Shown here: in pieces, positions 945 to 62,357 of the stretch
Layout of the letters: each line of letters begins with the position of its first letter
Position numbering within the stretch: the first letter of the stretch is position 1
DNA from: Shigella phage ESh28
Sequence record: ON528738
DNA: 64,000 nt
Reading direction: 5' to 3' (one strand)
The notes under the pieces: generated by a model
Told to the model about the DNA's origin: nothing
Database searches by the model: none
The model's input: only the letters and a program-made list of their open reading frames with translations
Position numbers and translations under genes: made by a program

Positions 945-1406
945 ATGACTATCAATACAGAAGTTTTTATCCGTCGAAATAAGCTCCGTCGTCACTTTGA
1001 GTCGGAGTTTCGTCAAATTAACAATGAGATTCGTGAGGCATCAAAAGCAGCAGGGGTCTCATCGTTTCATCTAAAATATTCTCAGCATCTTCTTGATCGT
1101 GCAATTCAACGGGAGATTGATGAGACATATGTTTTTGAATTATTCCATAAAATAAAAGACCATGTTTTAGAAGTTAATGAATTCCTGAGTATGCCTCCAC
1201 GTCCTGACATTGACGAGGATTTTATTGATGGGGTTGAATATCGTCCTGGACGTTTAGAAATCACAGATGGAAATCTTTGGCTTGGATTTACAGTTTGTAA
1301 ACCTAATGCGAAGTTCAAAGACCCGTCACTTCAGTGCAGGATGGCAATTATCAATAGTCGCCGTTTACCAGGAAAGGCTTCTAAAGCAGTAATTAAAACT
1401 CAATGA
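945..1406 (+). CDS. regB: probable RegB endoribonuclease, 153 aa
   Basis: Length and position (upstream of vs/tk cluster, own early promoter) match T4 RegB as I recall it; sequence identity not verified. Confidence 0.5.
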   Translation: MTINTEVFIRRNKLRRHFESEFRQINNEIREASKAAGVSSFHLKYSQHLLDRAIQREIDETYVFELFHKIKDHVLEVNEFLSMPPRPDIDEDFIDGVEYRPGRLEITDGNLWLGFTVCKPNAKFKDPSLQCRMAIINSRRLPGKASKAVIKTQ

Positions 1407-5084: not shown

Positions 5085-5118
5085 CGGTTTACTTTCCGTT
5101 TGAGCTGTGGTACTATAC
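5085..5118 (+). promoter_or_regulatory. T4-type early promoter
   Basis: gtttac 5087-5092, tggtactat -10 at 5108-5116, conserved leader acaactatc. Confidence 0.55.
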
Positions 5119-5144
5119 AACTATCGGATAAAGAGGAGAACATC

Positions 5145-5333
5145 ATGAAAATTGAAGCACTCAATCAAGAAGGAAATATCTACGTCATCATTAATGGTGA
5201 TTTTTTCGTCGACATGGATGAAGTTACTAGTGAAGAACTTGTAGAACTTCTTAAGAAACGTTATAATATGTGTGATGAAGTTGCAACTCATATGGCGTGT
5301 GCAATATTCTCTCTTTCATATGTGGTGGAATAA
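5145..5333 (+). CDS. hypothetical protein, 62 aa
   Basis: Track ORF 5100..5333 trimmed to ATG preceded by aagaggag. Confidence 0.5.
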
Positions 5334-5874: not shown

Positions 5875-5908
5875 TGGTTTACAAGTTGGCAAGGTTATGG
5901 TATAGTAA
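5875..5908 (+). promoter_or_regulatory. T4-type early promoter
   Basis: gtttac 5877-5882, tggtatagt -10 at 5898-5906. Confidence 0.55.
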
Positions 5909-5934
5909 TCTTGTCAACTGCCAAGGAGAAGAGA

Positions 5935-6225: not shown

Positions 6226-6492
6226 ATGGGCTTTCCTAAATTAGAAGTAGGTGATTTAATCTTAACAAAATTATGGAATGATGTTCAATCAGTAGAAATC
6301 TGCCAATATCGTGGAGCAACAGGTAATTTGATGTACACGATTTATAATCCAGAAATTTTGTTAGAGTGTCATTTGGAACGCTTTATAAAAGACACCGATA
6401 GTATGCCTTATAGTGTATCAATTGTACGTAAATCTGATACAAAGGAATATTCTAAAATTTTAGAACAAATCAGCGCAAATAAAAAGGATTAA
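6226..6492 (+). CDS. hypothetical protein, 88 aa
   Basis: Track ORF 6214..6492 trimmed to ATG after previous stop. Confidence 0.5.
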   Translation: MGFPKLEVGDLILTKLWNDVQSVEICQYRGATGNLMYTIYNPEILLECHLERFIKDTDSMPYSVSIVRKSDTKEYSKILEQISANKKD

Positions 6493-6493
6493 T

Positions 6494-7027
6494 ATGAAAC
6501 GATTAGTATTAGAAGTTAGTCCACTTTTTGGTGAATTGGCTATAGAAAAAGTAAATAATATGTATCGTTTGACGCAAGAAGACGATATGATGTATTTTAC
6601 ACCTAGTGAAATTATTCATTTAACCCAAATTGAATATCCTTATACTGATAAAATAGTAAGCATCAATGATGAGCACAAAATTCATTTTTATTCTTCATGC
6701 CCAGGATTTAATATTAAAAGTGAGTCAATGTGTTTATCAGTTATCCATTGGGATAGTTTTATAGCTAAGATTAAATATTTTTATTATTCTAATGAAAGAA
6801 AACATAGTTTAAAATGGCTCAAAAATTGCAATGCTATTATTACTAACGCTTGCAATCAGAATGATGAAACTCTTTTAAATGTATCAAAATGTTATGAAGA
6901 TGGAGATGTCTTAACTATTCGTCAAATTGACGATTTTCGATCGCATATTGTCACATTTACCAAAGACGAAGCTATTGCGCTAAAGACTTATCTTGATTCT
7001 GTCATTCCAACTATGATTTCAAAGTGA
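6494..7027 (+). CDS. hypothetical protein, 177 aa (paralog of next gene)
   Basis: Track ORF; C-terminal tail DEAIALKTYLDSVIPTMISK resembles tail of the following ORF. Confidence 0.55.
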   Translation: MKRLVLEVSPLFGELAIEKVNNMYRLTQEDDMMYFTPSEIIHLTQIEYPYTDKIVSINDEHKIHFYSSCPGFNIKSESMCLSVIHWDSFIAKIKYFYYSNERKHSLKWLKNCNAIITNACNQNDETLLNVSKCYEDGDVLTIRQIDDFRSHIVTFTKDEAIALKTYLDSVIPTMISK

Positions 7028-9030: not shown

Positions 9031-9056
9031 AGGGAGCCTTCGGGCTCCCTTTTTTA
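9031..9056 (+). terminator. rho-independent terminator
   Basis: gggagcc-ttcg-ggctccc followed by ttttttatttc. Confidence 0.75.
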
Positions 9057-9077
9057 TTTCAAAAATTTTTCACAAAG

Positions 9078-9111
9078 TTGTTTACAAGCATAAAGCTTTA
9101 TGGTACTATAC
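9078..9111 (+). promoter_or_regulatory. T4-type early promoter with A/T-rich upstream tract
   Basis: gtttac 9080-9085, tggtactat -10 9101-9109, conserved leader caactatcaact. Confidence 0.6.
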
Positions 9112-9143
9112 AACTATCAACTGATACGGATTTGGAGAATAAA

Positions 9144-10112
9144 ATGAAAACTGTAACTATCAATAAGGGTATCTACTTCGGTAAAGAAATCTCTGGAACT
9201 TTTGAGCTCTTAGGCGAATGGTTCCCAGATAATGCTCCGGTAGATGCACAAGGAGATGGTAAAGTTTTTGTTGAAATTGACGGTAAGCGTCGCGGTGTTT
9301 GGGTTTACAAATCAGACATTTCATATGATGGTGTAAAAGTTGAAGAAGTTAAAGAATCATATGAAGATATGAAAACCCGCATTAATAAAAGATTTAATGT
9401 TATGGGAATGATGACGAATGGTATTATTAACGGAAACATTCGTTCATTAATTATCTCTGGTGCGGCGGGTATTGGTAAAACGTATTCTTTAGATAAAGCT
9501 TTAAATAAAGCAAATGATATTGGATACATTGAATATAAAAGCATTAACGGTAAAATCTCTGGTATCGGTCTTTATGAACAGCTTTGGAATAATCGTGAAG
9601 AGAATTCTGTCCTTTTGATTGATGATGTGGATGTTTTCTCTGATATGGACATTCTTAATCTTCTAAAAGCTGCTCTGGACACTGGAGAGACCCGTAAAGT
9701 CTGCTGGAGCACTGCATCTTCTTACTTAGAAGAAAAAGGCATTGAGCGTGAGTTTGAATTTAAAGGAACGATTGTTTTTATCACAAACGTTGACATTGAC
9801 CGCGAATTAGACCGTGGTACTAAACTTGCTCCGCATTTACAAGCATTAGTGTCCCGCTCAGTTTATTTGGATTTGGGTGTTCACACTAATGAAGAAATTA
9901 TGGTCAGGGTTGAAGATGTTATTCTTTCAACTGACATGATGCAAAAGCGCGGTCTTTCTGATGAAGAAACTTATAAAGCATTATCATGGATGAAAGTCAA
10001 TGTTAATCGTTTACGCAATGTTTCACTGCGTACTGCACTTTATCTTGCTGACTTTATTATGACCGACAAAAATGGTTGGGAAGAAATTGCTGAGGTTACT
10101 CTTCTGAAATAA
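9144..10112 (+). CDS. AAA+ family ATPase, 322 aa
   Basis: Track ORF 9078..10112 trimmed to ATG after ttggagaat RBS; Walker A GAAGIGKT and Walker B LLIDDVD. Confidence 0.65.
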   Translation: MKTVTINKGIYFGKEISGTFELLGEWFPDNAPVDAQGDGKVFVEIDGKRRGVWVYKSDISYDGVKVEEVKESYEDMKTRINKRFNVMGMMTNGIINGNIRSLIISGAAGIGKTYSLDKALNKANDIGYIEYKSINGKISGIGLYEQLWNNREENSVLLIDDVDVFSDMDILNLLKAALDTGETRKVCWSTASSYLEEKGIEREFEFKGTIVFITNVDIDRELDRGTKLAPHLQALVSRSVYLDLGVHTNEEIMVRVEDVILSTDMMQKRGLSDEETYKALSWMKVNVNRLRNVSLRTALYLADFIMTDKNGWEEIAEVTLLK

Positions 10113-10213: not shown

Positions 10214-10516
10214 ATGTTATACTCAAAGGCTCGTGAAATTTATGAAACTAAAATTAAAGACGCGGTTCATCAGTTCGCAACGACAATGCGTTGGACAAAT
10301 GACTGGGAATACTCCAAGAATCATAAGAAGCCCTTGGTGACAAGAAAGGCTCATATATTAGTGTTAATAGACCGTGAGCAGATTAAAGCCCGAGAAGCCC
10401 TCCAGAATCATAAAAAGGCTGCCTTTGAATGGTTTATGGATAACACTGCTCCTGAGACTAAGAAAGCAGTGAGCGCTTGGTTCAGTGGAAAAAATTGTGA
10501 AAGAAGTTTCTTTTAG
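10214..10516 (+). CDS. hypothetical protein, about 100 aa
   Basis: Track ORF 10202..10516; start moved to ATG downstream of ggagg. Confidence 0.45.
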   Translation: MLYSKAREIYETKIKDAVHQFATTMRWTNDWEYSKNHKKPLVTRKAHILVLIDREQIKAREALQNHKKAAFEWFMDNTAPETKKAVSAWFSGKNCERSFF

Positions 10517-10550
10517 TTGTTTACAAGACCGTTCCTCTGTGGTACTATAC
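10517..10550 (+). promoter_or_regulatory. T4-type early promoter (cassette repeated at 62184..62217)
   Basis: gtttac 10519-10524, tggtactat 10540-10548; about 65 bp near-identical to 62183..62247. Confidence 0.6.
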
Positions 10551-10576
10551 AACTATCAACTACGGAGGAACAGAAA

Positions 10577-11104
10577 ATGAATGCTAAAGATATTTTCAAC
10601 TTGGTAAACTACAATGATGGTAAATTTAAATCTGAAGCTCAAAGCAAGTTCTTTAATGATGTCTCAATCGGTGGTGAAATCACGGTTGATGGAGGACAAA
10701 TTTACAAATCCCGTTGGAATTGGATCGTTATTATCGATGAGATTGGTATTGTAGAAATTTACAAGAATACGAATAAAAATCGTACATTACACTGGTCTCG
10801 TGATACTAACGAACAGTACAAAAAGGATAAAGCATCTAAATTATCTCGTGTAACTCAAGAAGATATTGAGTTCATCAAGAAAGATATTTTGATGTATGAT
10901 AACTTAATTGCTGAAGAGCAAGCTGTTATTGATAAATTTGACGAGATTAAAGCTTCTCGTGAAATTCCTGATTTTATGAAAGAATCAGTAAATGAACGAT
11001 ACACTCTCATTTCAGAGCGTATTGAAACTTACAAAAAGCAAAGAGCTGAACGCCAAAATACTCTTCGGAAGTTTGAAGAACGGTTAAAGACGGTACTCGC
11101 ATAA
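10577..11104 (+). CDS. hypothetical protein, 175 aa
   Basis: Track ORF 10517..11104 trimmed to ATG following acggagga RBS. Confidence 0.55.
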   Translation: MNAKDIFNLVNYNDGKFKSEAQSKFFNDVSIGGEITVDGGQIYKSRWNWIVIIDEIGIVEIYKNTNKNRTLHWSRDTNEQYKKDKASKLSRVTQEDIEFIKKDILMYDNLIAEEQAVIDKFDEIKASREIPDFMKESVNERYTLISERIETYKKQRAERQNTLRKFEERLKTVLA

Positions 11105-21869: not shown

Positions 21870-22070
21870 ATGAATCCTGAATCTAAATTATCGCAACGAA
21901 TTGCTGAAGCTCGTCGCCAGTTCTTTGAAAATATGATAGCCCAAGGTATTGATGACGAAGTTTTTCTAAACTGGTTTTGGAATCACAAATATTCAAGTTG
22001 CTCAGGAGCAATATTAATATCAGCCGCAATGATGTACGAAGGCTGGAAGGGTGCCAAAAAGTTTAGCTAA
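21870..22070 (+). CDS. hypothetical protein, 66 aa
   Basis: Track ORF; TAAATG overlap; followed by terminator. Confidence 0.5.
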   Translation: MNPESKLSQRIAEARRQFFENMIAQGIDDEVFLNWFWNHKYSSCSGAILISAAMMYEGWKGAKKFS

Positions 22071-30440: not shown

Positions 30441-30466
30441 TACACTAAAATTTGAATGAGGAAATT

Positions 30467-31426
30467 ATGATTACCGTAAATGAAAAAGAACACATTCTTG
30501 AACAGAAATATCGTCCATCTACTATCGATGAATGTATTCTTCCCGCCTTTGATAAAGAAACCTTTAAATCTATTACAAGTAAAGGTAAGATTCCACATAT
30601 TATTCTTCATTCTCCTTCTCCAGGAACAGGTAAAACAACTGTAGCAAAAGCATTGTGTCATGATGTAAATGCTGATATGATGTTTGTGAATGGATCAGAT
30701 TGTAAAATTGATTTCGTTCGTGGTCCTTTGACTAATTTTGCCAGCGCCGCTTCATTTGATGGTCGTCAAAAAGTAATCGTTATTGATGAATTTGACCGCT
30801 CAGGATTAGCAGAATCTCAGCGACATCTTCGTTCCTTTATGGAAGCTTATAGTTCGAACTGTAGTATTATTATTACTGCTAACAATATTGATGGTATTAT
30901 TAAACCACTTCAGTCACGCTGCCGAGTTATTACGTTCGGTCAACCGACCGATGAAGATAAAATTGAAATGATGAAGCAGATGATTCGTCGATTGACTGAA
31001 ATCTGTAAACATGAAGGTATTGCTATAGCTGATATGAAAGTTGTAGCAGCTTTGGTTAAAAAGAATTTTCCTGATTTTCGTAAAACTATTGGCGAGCTCG
31101 ATAGTTATTCATCTAAAGGTGTTTTGGATGCTGGTATTTTATCACTGGTTACTAACGATCGTGGTGCTATTGATGATGTTCTTGAGTCTCTCAAAAATAA
31201 AGATGTTAAACAACTCAGAGCTTTAGCACCAAAATATGCAGCTGATTATTCGTGGTTCGTGGGTAAACTTGCCGAAGAAATCTATACACGTGTAACACCA
31301 CAGAGTATTATTCGTATGTACGAAATTGTCGGCGAAAATAATCAGTATCATGGAATTGCGGCTAATACTGAATTGCATCTAGCTTATCTTTTCATTCAGT
31401 TAGCATGTGAAATGCAGTGGAAGTGA
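30467..31426 (+). CDS. 44: clamp loader large subunit gp44
   Basis: Track ORF 30452..31426 trimmed to ATG after gaggaaatt; 319 aa; Walker A GTGKTT, Walker B DEFD. Confidence 0.9.
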
Positions 31427-35148: not shown

Positions 35149-35171
35149 AGGGACCTCCAGGTCCCTTTTTC
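35149..35171 (+). terminator. rho-independent terminator
   Basis: agggacc-tcca-ggtccct followed by ttttt. Confidence 0.7.
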
Positions 35172-35251
35172 ATACAAGTAATATAAATCTATACTTATGA
35201 AAAAGAGATGATTCTGGACCCTTTGGATTCCCTAAAAATTTTTTCACAAAA

Positions 35252-35285
35252 CCGTTTACATCCCTGTTCTTCTATGGTACTATAC
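35252..35285 (+). promoter_or_regulatory. T4-type early promoter
   Basis: gtttac 35254-35259, tggtactat 35275-35283, leader nearly identical to the one at 9100-9146. Confidence 0.6.
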
Positions 35286-35320
35286 AACTATCAACTACTG
35301 ATACGGATTTGGAGAATGAA

Positions 35321-35701
35321 ATGAAAATCGCTATTTTGGTTATTGCATTAGGTCTTACTGGTTGTGTAGCTCAAGGACCGGTAGTAAATCAGTCTGATGT
35401 AGGAAAAATTGTAAACTGTTCAAGCAAGTTTTATAATCCTAATGTCAAGTGTTATAAAGAAGCTCCAAAGCAGACAGTAGAACAAATGCAGGCGAATTTT
35501 GACGAAGCTATTCGTCCAGATGAATCTGCTCAAGCATATCGTAATTCGGATGTAATTACACGCGAAGAAAAAATTGAAAACTACTGTGCAGAACTTTGGG
35601 CAAATTGGGCTAATAATTATCAATGGCGTACAGGTAAAAATGCTCCGATGGAGTATGTAGTGAATTCTTATAATTCATGTGTAAAAAATTTGACTAAGTG
35701 A
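35321..35701 (+). CDS. lipoprotein, 126 aa
   Basis: Track ORF 35309..35701 trimmed to ATG; signal peptide with lipobox LTGC. Confidence 0.55.
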   Translation: MKIAILVIALGLTGCVAQGPVVNQSDVGKIVNCSSKFYNPNVKCYKEAPKQTVEQMQANFDEAIRPDESAQAYRNSDVITREEKIENYCAELWANWANNYQWRTGKNAPMEYVVNSYNSCVKNLTK

Positions 35702-39298: not shown

Positions 39299-40726
39299 GT
39301 GGTAGAAATTATTCTTTCTCATCTCATATTTGATCAAGCTTATTTTTCAAAAGTTTGGCCATATATGGATTCAGAATATTTTGAAAGTGGTCCAGCTAAA
39401 AATACGTTCAAATTAATTAAATCTCATGTTAATGAGTATCATAGCGTTCCATCTATTAATGCGTTAAATGTTGCATTAGAAAATAGTTCATTTACTGAAA
39501 CGGAATATTCTGGTGTAAAAACACTTATTTCAAAACTAGCCGATTCTCCAGAAGACCACAGCTGGTTAATAAAAGAAACAGAAAAATATGTTCAGCAAAG
39601 GGCGATGTTTAATGCTACGTCTAAAATAATCGAAATTCAAACTAATGCTGAGCTTCCTCCGGAAAAACGAAATAAGAAAATGCCGGATGTTGGTGCTATT
39701 CCTGACATCATGCGTCAAGCATTATCAATTTCATTTGATAGCTACGTTGGTCATGATTGGATGGATGACTACGAAGCACGCTGGCTATCTTATATGAATA
39801 AAGCTCGTAAGGTTCCATTTAAACTCAGAATTCTAAACAAAATTACTAAAGGCGGAGCTGAGACTGGAACACTGAACGTTTTAATGGCTGGTGTTAACGT
39901 TGGTAAATCATTAGGACTTTGTTCATTAGCAGCAGATTATTTGCAGCTTGGTCATAACGTTCTTTATATCTCCATGGAAATGGCAGAAGAAGTCTGTGCT
40001 AAGCGTATTGATGCTAATATGCTTGATGTTTCTCTTGATGACATTGATGATGGGCATATTTCTTACGCTGAGTATAAAGGAAAAATGGAAAAATGGCGCG
40101 AGAAATCTACTCTCGGTCGTTTAATCGTTAAACAGTATCCTACTGGTGGAGCAGACGCTAATACATTCAGGTCTCTCTTGAACGAATTGAAGCTCAAAAA
40201 GAATTTTGTTCCAACAATCATTATTGTCGACTATCTAGGTATTTGTAAATCTTGCCGCATTAGAGTTTATTCAGAAAATAGTTACACAACTGTTAAAGCT
40301 ATTGCAGAGGAATTGCGTGCTCTGGCTGTTGAAACCGAAACTGTTCTTTGGACTGCAGCACAGGTCGGTAAACAAGCTTGGGACTCTTCTGATGTTAACA
40401 TGAGCGATATTGCAGAATCTGCCGGTCTTCCAGCAACGGCTGATTTTATGCTTGCGGTCATTGAAACCGAGGAGCTAGCAGCTGCTGAACAACAACTTAT
40501 TAAGCAAATCAAATCACGATATGGCGATAAGAATAAGTGGAATAAGTTTTTGATGGGTGTTCAAAAGGGAAATCAGAAATGGGTAGAAATTGAACAAGAT
40601 TCTACTCCAACCGAAGTGAGTGAAGTAGCAGGTTCACAACAGATTCAGGCTGAACAGAATCGCTATCAAAGAAACGAATCAGCTCGAGCTCAGTTAGATG
40701 CTTTGGCAAATGAATTAAAATTTTAG
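39299..40726 (+). CDS. 41: replicative DNA helicase gp41 (DnaB-like)
   Basis: 475 aa, GTG start; MVEIILSHLIFDQAYF, Walker A GVNVGKS; matches T4 gp41. Confidence 0.9.
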   Translation: MVEIILSHLIFDQAYFSKVWPYMDSEYFESGPAKNTFKLIKSHVNEYHSVPSINALNVALENSSFTETEYSGVKTLISKLADSPEDHSWLIKETEKYVQQRAMFNATSKIIEIQTNAELPPEKRNKKMPDVGAIPDIMRQALSISFDSYVGHDWMDDYEARWLSYMNKARKVPFKLRILNKITKGGAETGTLNVLMAGVNVGKSLGLCSLAADYLQLGHNVLYISMEMAEEVCAKRIDANMLDVSLDDIDDGHISYAEYKGKMEKWREKSTLGRLIVKQYPTGGADANTFRSLLNELKLKKNFVPTIIIVDYLGICKSCRIRVYSENSYTTVKAIAEELRALAVETETVLWTAAQVGKQAWDSSDVNMSDIAESAGLPATADFMLAVIETEELAAAEQQLIKQIKSRYGDKNKWNKFLMGVQKGNQKWVEIEQDSTPTEVSEVAGSQQIQAEQNRYQRNESARAQLDALANELKF

Positions 40727-40757
40727 TTTACAAGCTGACAAGACTATGGTATAGTAG
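40724..40757 (+). promoter_or_regulatory. T4-type early promoter
   Basis: gtttac 40726-40731, tggtatagt 40747-40755; -10 lies within inverted repeat caagacta/tagtcttg. Confidence 0.6.
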
Positions 40758-40784
40758 TCTTGTTGGTTAAATGAGGAGATTGTT

Positions 40785-41581: not shown

Positions 41582-42214
41582 ATGATTTATTATATGCACA
41601 AAAATCCACCGTTTAAATACGGTAAATTTCCTGATGCACAATGTTATAACATAACGCCTGATGAAAATAACCGTGGATATCTTATTGGCACAATTTTTGT
41701 AATTGTTAAAGATAACGAAATCGTTGCCTGGGCAGATTTTAAAGGTACAACATATGATGTTAATCCGGTGCCTTTCACATATTACAATTTAATGGATTTG
41801 GCATACGATTATAATTGGTTTAATCATGACACGTTGGCTCATATTGAAGGTGTAGGATTTGACATCTCTTATTCTAGCTACTCATTGTGTCCTATGAGTC
41901 GGGCTCATAAAGAACCTGAATATTTTTCATTTAGGAAACGTGTAAACTTTAAACGCAACACAGAGTATGTCGGTGGAATCTTTGTTAAAGATAATCGAAT
42001 TACTCGCATTATTTATCCTTTGGGCTGTGGTCAAAAAGATATTGATGTTGATTTAGACTTTACTGAAAACATCATTAATCATATTGCTTCTGTGTATTTT
42101 GGTATCGATCACAAAATTGTAATATGTGGATATGAATTACCGTTTGAAGAACAACCTAAAGTAAAAGTTTCTATTGACGATCAAATTTTTAATGCTTTTA
42201 TGAATAAAGGTTAA
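41582..42214 (+). CDS. 61.2-like protein, 210 aa (possible anti-DarT factor AdfA homolog)
   Basis: Track ORF; position matches T4 61.2; shares VKDN motif and 14-aa C-terminal tail with the next ORF. Confidence 0.5.
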   Translation: MIYYMHKNPPFKYGKFPDAQCYNITPDENNRGYLIGTIFVIVKDNEIVAWADFKGTTYDVNPVPFTYYNLMDLAYDYNWFNHDTLAHIEGVGFDISYSSYSLCPMSRAHKEPEYFSFRKRVNFKRNTEYVGGIFVKDNRITRIIYPLGCGQKDIDVDLDFTENIINHIASVYFGIDHKIVICGYELPFEEQPKVKVSIDDQIFNAFMNKG

Positions 42215-42215
42215 T

Positions 42216-42572
42216 ATGTATAGTTCTGAATTTTCATATTTAAAAATGGAAAAAATTTCATACGATTTTATAGATGAAAAGGTTTATTACAGTTTCCATG
42301 AACCACGTTTTAATAGTGAGGTTGGGTTTATTGTAGTAAAAGACAATTTCATTTTAAAGATATATTCGGCATTAAAGGATTTTCACTACGAAAATATTAA
42401 CCTAAAATTTGATAAAGAAAACGTTCGTAATTGTGCAGTAACAATTACAGGAAATAAAGGCACATGTGTTATGCTATCTGATGAAATTAATGATTTGCTA
42501 AATGATGCCGAAAAGGTTGCTATTCCATCTATTGATGACCAAATTTTTAATGCTTTTATGAATAGAGGTTAA
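42216..42572 (+). CDS. truncated paralog of the 61.2-like gene, 118 aa
   Basis: Track ORF; ends in SIDDQIFNAFMNRG, near-identical to the preceding gene's SIDDQIFNAFMNKG. Confidence 0.5.
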   Translation: MYSSEFSYLKMEKISYDFIDEKVYYSFHEPRFNSEVGFIVVKDNFILKIYSALKDFHYENINLKFDKENVRNCAVTITGNKGTCVMLSDEINDLLNDAEKVAIPSIDDQIFNAFMNRG

Positions 42573-42573
42573 T

Positions 42574-42738
42574 ATGAAAACATATAAAGAATTTATTAAA
42601 GAAGATATGGTAGCTGGAGATTCAGGTGGTAATCCTGAAAATATCTCTACTGGAACAACATCAGGTGCTGTAGTAAATAAAGGTCCTGAACAGATTCCTA
42701 AAAAGAAAAAAGAGGAATCTAAAGAAAAAGAAGAGTAA
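42574..42738 (+). CDS. hypothetical Lys/Glu-rich protein, 54 aa (T4 61.1 position)
   Basis: ATG 2 nt after previous stop; ends 2 nt before primase start. Confidence 0.4.
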   Translation: MKTYKEFIKEDMVAGDSGGNPENISTGTTSGAVVNKGPEQIPKKKKEESKEKEE

Positions 42739-53903: not shown

Positions 53904-53926
53904 AGTTTAAAATTTTTTCATAAAAC

Positions 53927-53960
53927 TATATACATCAGTAGTTGATTATGGTACTATATC
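53927..53960 (+). promoter_or_regulatory. possible early promoter with conserved leader cassette
   Basis: tggtactat -10 at 53950-53958 and leader caatatcaactactgata...ttggagaataaaATG as at 9100 and 35277; -35 weak. Confidence 0.4.
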
Positions 53961-54075
53961 AATATCAACTACTGATATAGAAAACAACTTGGAGAATAAA
54001 ATGGATAATTCGTTAAAGGTGCTGATACTCTTCTGAAACGCATCGCTCCAATGTTCAATTAATGAGGAAATTGTA

Positions 54076-57454: not shown

Positions 57455-57658
57455 ATGAAATCATATAAAGTAAATTTAGAACTTTTTGATAAAGCAGTTC
57501 ATCGAGAATATAGAATCATTCAACGCTTTTTCGATATGGGAGAAGCCGAAGAATTTAAAAACCGCTTTAAAGATATTAGAGATAAAATTCAATCCGACAC
57601 CGCAACTAAAGATGAACTACTAGAAGTTGCTGAAGTTATTAAACGCAATATGAATTAA
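57455..57658 (+). CDS. hypothetical protein, 67 aa (T4 rIIA.1 position)
   Basis: Track ORF with gaggatatt RBS. Confidence 0.5.
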
Positions 57659-57668
57659 TGAGGAAATT

Positions 57669-59846
57669 ATGATTATCACCACTGAAAAAGAAACAATTCT
57701 TGGTAATGGTTCTAAATCAAAAGCATTTAGCATCACAGCATCTCCTAAAGTATTTAAAATTCTGTCATCTGATTTGTATACAAACAAAATTCGCGCAGTA
57801 GTCCGTGAATTGATTACCAACATGATTGATGCCCATGCTCTCAATGGAAATCCTGAAAAATTTATCATTCAAGTTCCTGGACGTTTAGATCCACGATTTG
57901 TTTGCCGAGATTTTGGTCCAGGTATGAGTGATTTTGATATTCAGGGTGATGATAATTCTCCTGGTTTGTATAATTCATACTTCAGTTCATCTAAGGCTGA
58001 ATCTAACGATTTCATTGGCGGATTTGGTTTAGGTTCTAAATCTCCGTTTAGTTATACTGATACATTTAGTATTACTTCATATCATAAAGGCGAAATTCGT
58101 GGTTATGTAGCTTACATGGATGGTGATGGTCCGCAAATTAAACCTACATTCGTAAAAGAAATGGGTCCAGACGATAAAACTGGTATTGAAATCGTAGTTC
58201 CAGTTGAAGAAAAAGACTTTAGAAACTTTGCTTATGAAGTTTCTTATATCATGCGACCATTCAAAGATTTGGCTATCATTAATGGTCTTGACCGCGAAAT
58301 TGATTATTTTCCGGATTTTGATGATTATTACGGTGTAAATCCAGAAAGATACTGGCCTGATCGCGGTGGATTATATGCTATCTATGGCGGTATTGTTTAT
58401 CCTATTGATGGTGTTATTAGAGACCGCAACTGGTTAAGCATTCGCAATGAAGTGAATTACATTAAGTTTCCAATGGGTTCACTGGATATTGCTCCATCAC
58501 GCGAAGCTCTTTCACTGGACGATCGCACTCGCAAAAATATTATTGAACGAGTTAAAGAACTCAGTGAGAAAGCATTTAATGAAGATGTAAAACGATTTAA
58601 AGAATCTACATCTCCTCGTCACACATATCGTGAATTGATGAAGATGGGATATTCTGCTCGAGATTATATGATTAGTAATTCAGTCAAATTCACGACTAAA
58701 AATCTGTCATATAAAAAGATGCAGAGCATGTTTGAACCTGATAGTAAGTTATGCAACGCGGGAGTTGTGTATGAAGTAAATCTTGACCCTCGACTGAAAC
58801 GCATTAAGCAAAGCCATGAAACTTCAGCCGTTGCATCAAGTTATCGTCTGTTTGGTATTAATACAACAAAAATTAATATCGTTATTGATAATATTAAAAA
58901 TCGTGTTAATATTGTCCGCGGATTAGCACGAGCGTTAGATGATAGTGAATTTAATAACACTTTGAATATTCATCATAATGAGCGTCTTCTGTTTATTAAT
59001 CCAGAAGTAGAATCGCAGATTGATTTACTTCCTGATATTATGGCGATGTTTGAAAGTGATGAAGTTAACATTCATTATTTGTCAGAAATTGAAGCTTTAG
59101 TTAAAAGCTATATTCCAAAGGTAGTTAAAAGTAAAGCTCCTCGTCCTAAAGCTGCTACAGCATTTAAGTTTGAAATTAAAGACGGACGCTGGGAAAAAGA
59201 GGAACTATTTACGCTCACATCAGAAGCAGATGAAATTACTGGTTATGTAGCGTATATGCATCGTTCTGATATTTTCTCTATGGATGGTACTACATCTCTT
59301 TGTCATCCATCTATGAATATTTTGATTCGTATGGCTAATCTTATTGGCATTAATGAATTTTATGTTATTCGTCCGCTTTTACAGAAAAAGGTAAAAGAAC
59401 TCGGTCAGTGCCAATGTATTTTTGAAGCTTTGCGTGATTTATATGTAGATGCTTTTGATGATGTAGATTATGATAAGTACGTAGGTTATTCAAGTTCAGC
59501 TCAACGATATATTGATAAAATTATCAAGTATCCTGAACTAGATTTTATGATGAAGTACTTCAGTGTAGATGAAGTTTCTGAAGAATATACACGACTCGCT
59601 AATATGGTTAGTTCATTACAGGGTGTATATTTTAATGGTGGAAAAGATACCATCGGTCATGACATCTGGACAGTAACTAATCTTTTTGATGTATTATCAA
59701 ATAATGCTTCAAAAAATAGTGATAAAATGGTTGCTGAGTTTACCAAGAAATTCCGTATTGTTTCCGACTTCATTGGTTATCGCAATTCTTTAAGCGATGA
59801 TGAAGTTTCCCAAATCGCTAAAACTATGAAGGCCCTTGCGGCCTAA
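57669..59846 (+). CDS. rIIA: rIIA
   Basis: 725 aa; N-terminal GHKL-like ATPase motifs; matches T4 rIIA length and position. Confidence 0.9.
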
Positions 59847-61677: not shown

Positions 61678-61711
61678 CAGTTTACATACCACAAGGACTG
61701 TGGTACTATAC
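61678..61711 (+). promoter_or_regulatory. T4-type early promoter
   Basis: gtttac 61680-61685, tggtactat 61701-61709, leader caactatcagctacggagga. Confidence 0.6.
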
Positions 61712-61736
61712 AACTATCAGCTACGGAGGAGTAAAA

Positions 61737-62000
61737 ATGAAATTTAAATTTTATTACGCTAAACATAAAATAACTGATGAGTTTGTGTCAGTTGAATATT
61801 CTAGCGACGATGAAGGTATGATTTATACTCGCTTGGGACTATCGCATTGGGAGTCTGATACGCCTTATTTTTCAACTCCCGAAGAAATTACACGCTTAGT
61901 TAATGGTCATATGAATGACCACTGGAATGTAATTCTTTCAGATAGTCTTAAAGCGGCTATTAATAGTAATGAAATGAAAATCGCTGAGATTGAACTATGA
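61737..62000 (+). CDS. hypothetical protein, 87 aa
   Basis: Track ORF with ggaggagt RBS. Confidence 0.5.
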   Translation: MKFKFYYAKHKITDEFVSVEYSSDDEGMIYTRLGLSHWESDTPYFSTPEEITRLVNGHMNDHWNVILSDSLKAAINSNEMKIAEIEL

Positions 62001-62183
62001 GTTCATTGTGGTGGTGTTTTGTTTGGTTAATTAGTATTCCAGTAATTTGTTTAACATTTACTTTTGTGATGAGGTTATTATGAAAATTTTGAATTCTGTA
62101 CTTATTGCTTGTGCGTGGTGGGTTGCGCAAGTTTCAGCAGTAGTAGTTGGTATTCACATTTATTACGAATATTTTTAAAAAAG

Positions 62184-62217
62184 TTGTTTACAAGACTGTT
62201 CCTCTGTGGTACTATAC
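62184..62217 (+). promoter_or_regulatory. T4-type early promoter (cassette copy of 10517..10550)
   Basis: gtttac 62186-62191, tggtactat 62207-62215; one mismatch to the cassette at 10515-10579. Confidence 0.6.
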
Positions 62218-62243
62218 AACTATCAACTACGGAGGAACAGAAA

Positions 62244-62357
62244 ATGAAAAAGATTGTTAAAGCTATATGGAATGTAGTTATAATACTAGTAGTTTTGAGT
62301 ATATTCCCAATCGTTTTAATGATTGATGTATTAAACGCTTACTTTGGATTTATGTGA
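62244..62357 (+). CDS. small membrane peptide, 37 aa
   Basis: ATG with acggagga RBS in the cassette; the longer track ORF 62109..62357 reads through the promoter. Confidence 0.35.
   Translation: MKKIVKAIWNVVIILVVLSIFPIVLMIDVLNAYFGFM

Follow-up and report, generated by a model that had tools for sequence, protein, structure and literature searches.

Why should genes of unrelated families in one phage genome begin behind nearly the same short sequence, shared down to the ribosome-binding site (RBS) and the start codon? The question is raised by a block in the DNA of Shigella phage ESh28 that precedes an open reading frame (ORF) at position 9144 of the 64,000-nt stretch of record ON528738 that we analyzed (hereafter, the window). 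It recurs upstream of a second gene and, in more altered form, upstream of an ORF of only 11 codons. A prior interpretation based on the letters of the DNA (hereafter, the sequence-only reading) had proposed that the copies reflect cassette-mediated shuffling and a shared post-transcriptional control, for example RegB-type cleavage at GGAG. Here, we follow up these proposals by comparison with phage T4 and its relatives. We favor, with a probability of about 0.8, the explanation that the copies are T4-type immediate-early expression cassettes that are alike because the cassette spread and was re-assorted, and that carry RegB/S1 sites.

A promoter and leader block repeated in a T4-like phage

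By alignment, the window comes from a Tequatrovirus, with about 98% identity to T4 relatives that have been sequenced. The 4-kb stretch around the repeat matches the best Tequatrovirus (T4-like) genomes at 97.6-98.1% identity, and 492 of the 769 records matching this stretch are 95-99% identical to it. Early transcription in T4 runs in the direction of the window's + strand, on which the features listed below lie. Alignment to T4 (NC_000866) places copy 1 upstream of the nrdC.10 ortholog, copy 2 upstream of imm.1, and copy 3 in the spacer between motB and cef.

All three copies that had been described are present in the window. Their ends were given exactly, as were the coordinates of the 11-codon ORF (54001..54036), but their starts were off: the equivalent first base, the T of TATGG, lies at 9099, 35273, and 53947, not at 9100, 35277, and 53950. 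Copies 1 and 2 differ by one substitution (GGAGAAT(A/G)AAATG) and by a 3-nt indel, the ACT of ACTACT, which had been taken for a 2-nt AC difference; they are otherwise identical up to ATGAAAA and divergent beyond it. In 100 shuffles, neither half of the repeat found a match.

The family is larger than the three members first recognized, with the -10/start block found at seven promoters in the window. With three or fewer mismatches, the initial 24 nt (TATGGTACTATACAACTATCAACT) occur at six sites (9099, 10538, 35273, 53947, 61699, and 62205), and a shorter seventh match lies at 5106. A repeat finder returned this promoter block as the largest direct-repeat family of the window (D1, seven copies of 69 nt). 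The second half (TGATACGGATTTGGAGAATRAAATG) is found in the window only at 9122 and 35299, that is, at nrdC.10 and imm.1. Copy 3, which had been viewed as a more diverged version of the other two, does share the block; it has a different linker and is all but identical to the T4 e.8 leader, whose gene lies just outside the window. The description of the repeat as a shared 5' leader likewise held in part. The RBS and ATG are shared, while the first ~17 nt of the proposed leader correspond to a sigma-70 promoter's extended -10 plus discriminator and are, for that reason, probably not transcribed. Nor is the similarity confined to the -10 region; it continues through the Shine-Dalgarno (SD) sequence and the ATG. 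The four further members in the window are as follows.

5088..5151, + strand: related cassette upstream of the rI.-1 ortholog, with only TGGTACTATACAACTATC in common.
10520..10580, + strand: related cassette upstream of the nrdC.8 ortholog, sharing the -10/start block ACAACTATCAACTAC, with a different, shorter leader (GGAGGAACAGAAAATG).
61681..61739, + strand: related cassette downstream of denB, sharing the -10/start block, with another leader and an 87-aa ORF at 61737-62000.
62187..62247, + strand: related cassette, 99% identical to the nrdC.8 cassette across 67 nt (family D2).

The D2 pair, at 10515-10581 and 62182-62248, is alike from the -35 through GGAGGAACAGAAAATGAA and lies upstream of the nrdC.8 ortholog and of an ndd.4-like small membrane ORF. 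It is presumably what the sequence-only reading counted as a first leader family.

T4 carries the same three copies and, in addition, copies at e.8, at motA (5' part only), and in the denB/ndd.6 spacer. Across the GenBank phage set, the leader turned up 1110 times in 507 phage records, each compatible with the genus Tequatrovirus; a scan of IMG/VR yielded five loci only, making the GenBank set by far the richer source. The A/G difference and the ACT indel are locus-specific and identical in T4 and the window, suggesting that exchange between these particular copies is infrequent.

Two other pairs of repeats in the window lie in or at the ends of coding regions. The initiation regions of gene 44 and rIIA (30455-30500 and 57657-57702, assigned by T4 map position) are 83% identical over 46 nt that include the SD, the ATG, and the first ~10 codons; both mRNAs are RegA-repressed, and the similar region may be a shared operator. 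A 49-nt repeat with 94% identity (42170-42218 and 42528-42576) is shared by the 3' ends of two neighboring ORFs, one 61.2-like (210 aa) and the other an extra 118-aa ORF that the T4 table lacks. The final residues of each are ...SIDDQIFNAFMN(K/R)G, stop and start overlap in TAATATG, and the arrangement looks like a partial tandem paralogue.

Anatomy of the three cassettes

The elements follow one another in the same order in each copy: UP tract (A/T-rich), -35 (GTTTACA), spacer of 17 nt, extended -10 (TGgTACTAT), ACAACTATCAACT, leader, GGAG SD, and ATG. The AAAAATTTTTCACAAA-type A/T-rich tract lies upstream of the -35 in 3/3 copies, and GGAG with the ATG of the downstream gene forms the 3' end in 3/3. 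Copies 1 and 2 have TTTACA-N17-TACTAT with TGn, and copy 3 has TATACA-N17-TACTAT, with its -35 outside the TTTACW consensus. The features of the first cassette, whose promoter directly adjoins the terminator hairpin of nrdC.11 (stem-loop 9031-9050), are as follows.

9031..9056, + strand: terminator stem-loop, AGGGAGCC-TTCG-GGCTCCCT and a T tract, with 8 pairs of which 6 are GC; ends nrdC.11.
9057..9109, + strand: early promoter, with UP-like tract, -35 TTTACA at 9081-9086, 17-nt spacer, TGn at 9101-9103, and -10 TACTAT at 9104-9109.
9116..9143, + strand: predicted leader of the nrdC.10 ortholog mRNA, with TATCA-AC-TGATA at 9115-9126 and the linker CGGATTT.
9134-9144, + strand: SD and RegB/S1 11-mer GGAGAATAAAA, overlapping the ATG at 9144-9146; predicted RegB cut G9135/A9136.
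9144..10112, + strand: nrdC.10 ortholog, 322 aa; P-loop/AAA matches are weak and sub-threshold.

Cassette 2 lies between gene 43 and imm.1, and its spacer differs both from that of cassette 1 and from that of T4's own imm.1 promoter.

35149..35171, + strand: terminator stem-loop after gene 43 (stem-loop 35149-35166), ~85 nt upstream of the cassette 2 -35.
35235..35283, + strand: early promoter, with UP-like tract, -35 TTTACA at 35255-35260, 17-nt spacer with TGn, and -10 TACTAT at 35278-35283.
35290..35323, + strand: predicted imm.1 leader, with GGAGAATGAAA at 35311-35321 (its one mismatch being a G at position 8) and ATG at 35321-35323.
35321..35701, + strand: imm.1 ortholog, 126 aa, DUF5481, with an N-terminal lipobox-like LTGC.

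Cassette 3 has the same promoter sequence as its T4 counterpart. With 8/12 hexamer matches, this promoter was not called by a generic promoter scan, and no stem-loop was found upstream of it.

53909..53957, + strand: promoter in the motB-cef spacer, with UP-like tract, degenerate -35 TATACA at 53929-53934, 17-nt spacer with TGn, and -10 TACTAT at 53952-53957.
53964..54003, + strand: predicted leader with e.8-type linker, GGAGAATAAAA at 53991-54001 and ATG at 54001-54003.
54001..54062, + strand: remnant of an 89-codon ORF, comprising the 11-codon ORF (54001-54036) and the original stop TAA (54060-54062).

Transcription of copy 1 probably starts at A9116, which was placed 7 nt past the -10 hexamer. 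If start sites lie seven bases past the -10 in each case, the leaders would be ~28-37 nt long. Folding of five leaders indicated that they are unstructured relative to shuffles, with z = -0.26 for nrdC.10, 0.16 for imm.1, and 0.80 for cassette 3, and an Rfam scan of the whole window returned no match.

The leaders match the rule for RegB/S1 cleavage

Cleavage of the SD by RegB inactivates early mRNAs, and early proteins thus peak at ~4 min. According to Durand 2006 (PMC1702504), all 68 intergenic GGAG/U sites of T4 were tested for cleavage and 26 were cut, efficient RegB/S1 cleavage needing the 11-nt single-stranded GGAGAAUAAAA or, more generally, GGAGRAYARAA. The same paper gives motB.2 and 55.2 as the only two GGAU sites cut and lists nrdC.8 as moderately cut. 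A RegB/S1 site thus has GGA followed by G, rarely by U, and then directly by an A-rich, C-free seven-base tail.

In the 64-kb window, an exact GGAGRAYARAA occurs twice only, at 9134 and 53991, each time inside one of the leaders described here; GGAGAATAAAA, found at both positions, is the T4 consensus for efficient cleavage. We scored the seven-base tail of all 341 GGAG/U sites on the + strand, and only four had a perfect (7/7) tail: copies 1 and 3 and two GGAU sites, which map to motB.2 and 55.2 by sequence and T4 position. The 6/7 class includes GGAGAATGAAA of imm.1, the sequence of the motB model substrate (GGAGUAUAAAA), and, at 935, the SD of regB in the window (GGAGAATAACATG). Cleavage at the regB SD in T4-related phages is reported in a review (Uzan & Miller 2010, PMC3014915). 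The G at position 4, after GGA, is thus present in 3/3 copies, with the RAYARAA tail complete (7/7) in copies 1 and 3 and at 6/7 in copy 2. In the imm.1 copy, position 8, which is among the three A positions conserved best, is a G, and this site may therefore be cut less well. The enzyme predicted to act on these leaders in trans is encoded in the window.

945..1406, + strand: regB, endoribonuclease (Pfam REGB_T4, E = 1.4e-68).

Position and context agree with such a role: the 11-mer follows an early-type promoter at a distance of 18-35 nt, overlaps the ATG, and sits in a leader no more stable than shuffles. Moreover, the 11-mer is kept before nrdC.10 in a Mosigvirus with an unrelated linker, which points to selection on the 11-mer itself. 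The proposed shared control at GGAG thus gains support from the consensus match (copies 1 and 3, with one mismatch in copy 2), the unstructured leaders, and the presence of regB, and we infer that RegB would cleave at all three sites. A literature search for these genes together with RegB returned nothing relevant.

A separate intergenic element is a multi-copy hairpin, AAGGGCTTCGGCCCTT, with a UUCG tetraloop (families D5/D6; 22068, 25702, 30412, 32364, 55508, 60794, and 61017). Its copy at 22068 directly precedes GGATAATAAAA, the 55.2 site, which is one of the two GGAU sequences reported as RegB-cut.

Promoters, leaders, and genes are combined in mosaic fashion

Promoter and leader do not always travel together. 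At T4 (NC_000866) positions 146846 and 55355, the frd.3 and nrdC.10 promoters are the same from the UP tract through ACAACTATC (UP, -35, spacer, and -10), with another leader thereafter, and window position 61681 and T4 position 167057 have one promoter with different leaders. Conversely, at imm.1 the nrdC.10 leader lies behind a different promoter spacer, which in the window resembles the T4 e.8 spacer, not the T4 imm.1 spacer.

We also identified three rearrangements among close relatives with junctions inside the -10/leader/ATG module. At the site that follows denB, the window carries its own leader ahead of the 87-codon ORF (61737-62000). In T4, the family-2 leader, as we call the leader of nrdC.10 and imm.1, is joined there to the ORF's final eight codons, MKIAEIEL*. 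Window and T4 diverge past ACAACTATCA and become alike again at ATGAAAATCGCT, which is also found at the imm.1 start. The 87-codon ORF, for which no Pfam match was found, is conserved in 628 phage records, and only its last eight codons are left in T4, as an unannotated 8-codon ORF in the denB/ndd.6 spacer whose stop overlaps the start of ndd.6 (ATGA). Between gene 43 and imm.1, other Tequatroviruses have an extra 78-codon ORF right behind the leader, with imm.1 next and preceded by a different SD. This ORF, seen at 6271-6508 of an IMG/VR Tequatrovirus contig (L006) behind a family-2 leader and absent from T4 and the window, has a signal-peptide-like N-terminus (MKIVMGCLAVCLVALAA...). Both it and imm.1 begin with ATGAAAAT, and the junction lies at ATGAAAAT(C/T)G.

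The third rearrangement, at motB-cef, explains the 11-codon ORF. The shared leader had been described as driving only this ORF ahead of the next gene. About 261 relatives, T2 included, keep the 89-codon ORF whole behind this leader, and the window and T4 share an internal deletion of 208 nt bounded by ATGGAAAA and ATGTAAAA repeats. The deletion shifts the frame and leaves 11 codons, a scar rather than a control element; a regulatory mini-ORF was rejected once the intact ORF was seen. The direction of each of the three events is one that we infer.

Together, promoter/leader mosaicism and the three junctions inside the module support the shuffling that had been proposed, insofar as aligned genomes can speak to it. 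Paralogy of the downstream genes was considered and rejected: the 89-aa ORF and T4 e.8 have no similarity, and NrdC.10 and Imm.1 belong to unrelated families. In Mosigvirus, the imm.1 and nrdC.10 orthologs lie behind early promoters of their own, with different linkers, indicating that the linker is not deeply constrained. Selection on the expression signals may also help keep the copies alike.

A model for cassette function, and its alternatives

Our model is that host sigma-70 RNA polymerase would transcribe from a very strong UP/-35/TGn/-10 promoter, probably starting at the A seven bases past TACTAT. The product would be a short, unstructured, A/U-rich leader ending in the GGAG SD and the start codon. 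The SD and the next seven bases (GGAGAATAAAA) would form an optimal RegB site, cut between G and A with ribosomal protein S1 helping, so that genes behind the cassette would show an expression burst in the first minutes and then be switched off. Recombination at the conserved blocks (the -10/start block and the SD/ATG) would join the cassette to unrelated genes, leaving scars such as the 11-codon ORF.

One alternative is that no DNA was copied between loci and each gene independently reached optimal promoter, ribosome-binding, and RegB signals. The blocks of known function (UP, -35, TGn/-10, and GGAGAATAAAATG) are indeed the best conserved, and the 11-mer occurs at other genes with unrelated leaders (T4 30.8 and the trna.4 region) and, with a different linker, at Mosigvirus nrdC.10. 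Convergence does not account, however, for the linker TGATACGGATTT, which is without known signal yet identical at nrdC.10, imm.1, and the T4 denB/ndd.6 spacer, nor for homology that stops abruptly at shared junctions and the accompanying rearrangement scars; we therefore regard convergence by itself as improbable. If DNA was copied, a dedicated site-specific recombination system might have moved the cassettes in place of general or microhomology-mediated recombination. The three junctions do not coincide: one follows ACAACTATCA, one is at ATGAAAAT(C/T)G, and one is at ATGGAAAA/ATGTAAAA. Each is within shared sequence, as expected for homology-driven events, with no associated recombinase. A dedicated system is thus unneeded, and we consider it very unlikely.

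We consider each of two further alternatives most improbable. Were the block a structured cis-regulatory RNA or a leader-peptide (upstream ORF) element, with the 11-codon ORF encoding a regulatory peptide, then the small palindrome TATCA-N(2/5)-TGATA at the predicted 5' end and the mini-ORF's perfect SD, kept in both T4 and the window, would find a ready explanation. A structured RNA was nonetheless rejected on the fold energies of the five leaders, which are no better than those of shuffles (z from -0.26 to +0.80), and on the Rfam scan. The mini-ORF, for its part, is the out-of-frame remnant of a gene intact elsewhere, is polymorphic within the genus, and stops 40 nt short of cef, indicating no coupling to it. 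The same palindrome, with its N5 spacing and at about +1 to +15, could instead be a DNA operator bound by a phage protein that shuts off some early promoters, a notion that draws on its presence at imm.1, upstream of cef, and at e.8, motA, and the T4 denB/ndd.6 copy, and on a review stating that T4 early-transcription shut-off is not fully understood. Yet the carriers are all homologous copies, which means that its recurrence does not count as independent evidence. Arms of 5 bp make for a weak palindrome where the DNA is A/T-rich, and at nrdC.10 the half-sites are spaced by 2 rather than 5, a difference that a dimeric operator would not tolerate and that makes an operator unlikely. No protein is known to bind the TATCA/TGATA palindrome.

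Significance

The repeated block is real but ordinary for T4-like phages: on our preferred explanation, it is an immediate-early promoter with leader, RBS, and start codon, of the already known PeSL type, and its RBS matches the textbook RegB site. Its discovery value is low, with the same sequences in T4, a promoter class and RegB rule that are textbook matter, and cassette shuffling published in 2010 and 2014. For annotation, the analysis suggests three immediate-early transcription units with probable RegB cut sites and explains an odd 11-codon ORF as a deletion scar. It also supplies three clean natural examples of rearrangement with junctions in the cassette. We speculate, tentatively, that the family-2 cassette is a portable "pulse-expression" module: with the optimal RegB/S1 11-mer at the 3' end of an unstructured leader, it would wire a captured ORF at once into an immediate-early, RegB-terminated burst. 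If so, leader recombination would be a route by which T-even phages recruit new genes into the RegB-terminated regulon.

Comparison with known systems

With leader-peptide or upstream-ORF elements, copy 3 shares a very short ORF with a strong SD ahead of cef. Unlike in such elements, this ORF is what a frameshifting deletion left behind; it is polymorphic within the genus and uncoupled from cef.

The closest published counterpart is the PeSL. In Arbiol 2010 (PMC2839356) and Comeau 2014 (PMC4122927), this is a composite intergenic element in which a stem-loop, an A/T-rich tract, and a sigma-70-type early promoter are followed by the SD and start codon of the next gene. These sources describe recombination-mediated shuffling of PeSL cassettes, including in the PST/T4 pair and the ndd region, and give a PST/T4 promoter consensus of TTTACW-N17-TAYWAT. 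In RB49, sequencing of mini-circles demonstrated crossovers in the interval from the -10 to the ATG (Arbiol 2010, PMC2839356). The cassettes described here resemble PeSLs in their composite layout, their many copies per genome, their location beside indels and gene replacements among close relatives, and their crossovers in the -10-to-ATG interval. The stem-loop is adjacent in copy 1, ~85 nt upstream in copy 2, and missing from copy 3, which, having a degenerate -35 as well, resembles the "degraded" or half PeSLs of the Arbiol and Comeau work. RegB is not mentioned in Arbiol 2010 (PMC2839356) nor in the parts of Comeau 2014 (PMC4122927) that we consulted, and in neither did we find the link between PeSL shuffling and RegB; the modest addition of our analysis is to connect the two literatures explicitly and to provide the three natural junctions.

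Two other early promoters of the window, at 5877-5914 and 40726-40763, are 87% alike and have 13-14 bp inverted repeats flanking the -10 hexamer (AGTTGGCAAGGTTA ... TAATCTTGTCAACT). A stem-loop formed by these repeats would overlap the -10, as described for RB49-type PeSLs.

T4 early promoters consist of UP, -35, TGn, and -10 elements, with extra conserved positions in alignments (Hinton 2010 review, PMC2988021). All four RNA polymerase recognition elements are present here as well. Relative to T4 early promoters in general, the copies here make up a sub-family marked by the -10 TACTAT and the start block ACAACTATCAACT, a block found at 7 of the ~20 early-type promoters in the window.

Finally, the SD regions resemble the RegB/S1 sites of motB, regB, motB.2, and 55.2 as presented in PMC1702504 and PMC3014915, with GGAG in the SD, an A-rich 7-mer, a predicted single-stranded context, and an early transcript. 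The likeness is one of sequence: copies 1 and 3 equal the RegB/S1 consensus GGAGAAUAAAA, and imm.1 deviates from it at position 8.
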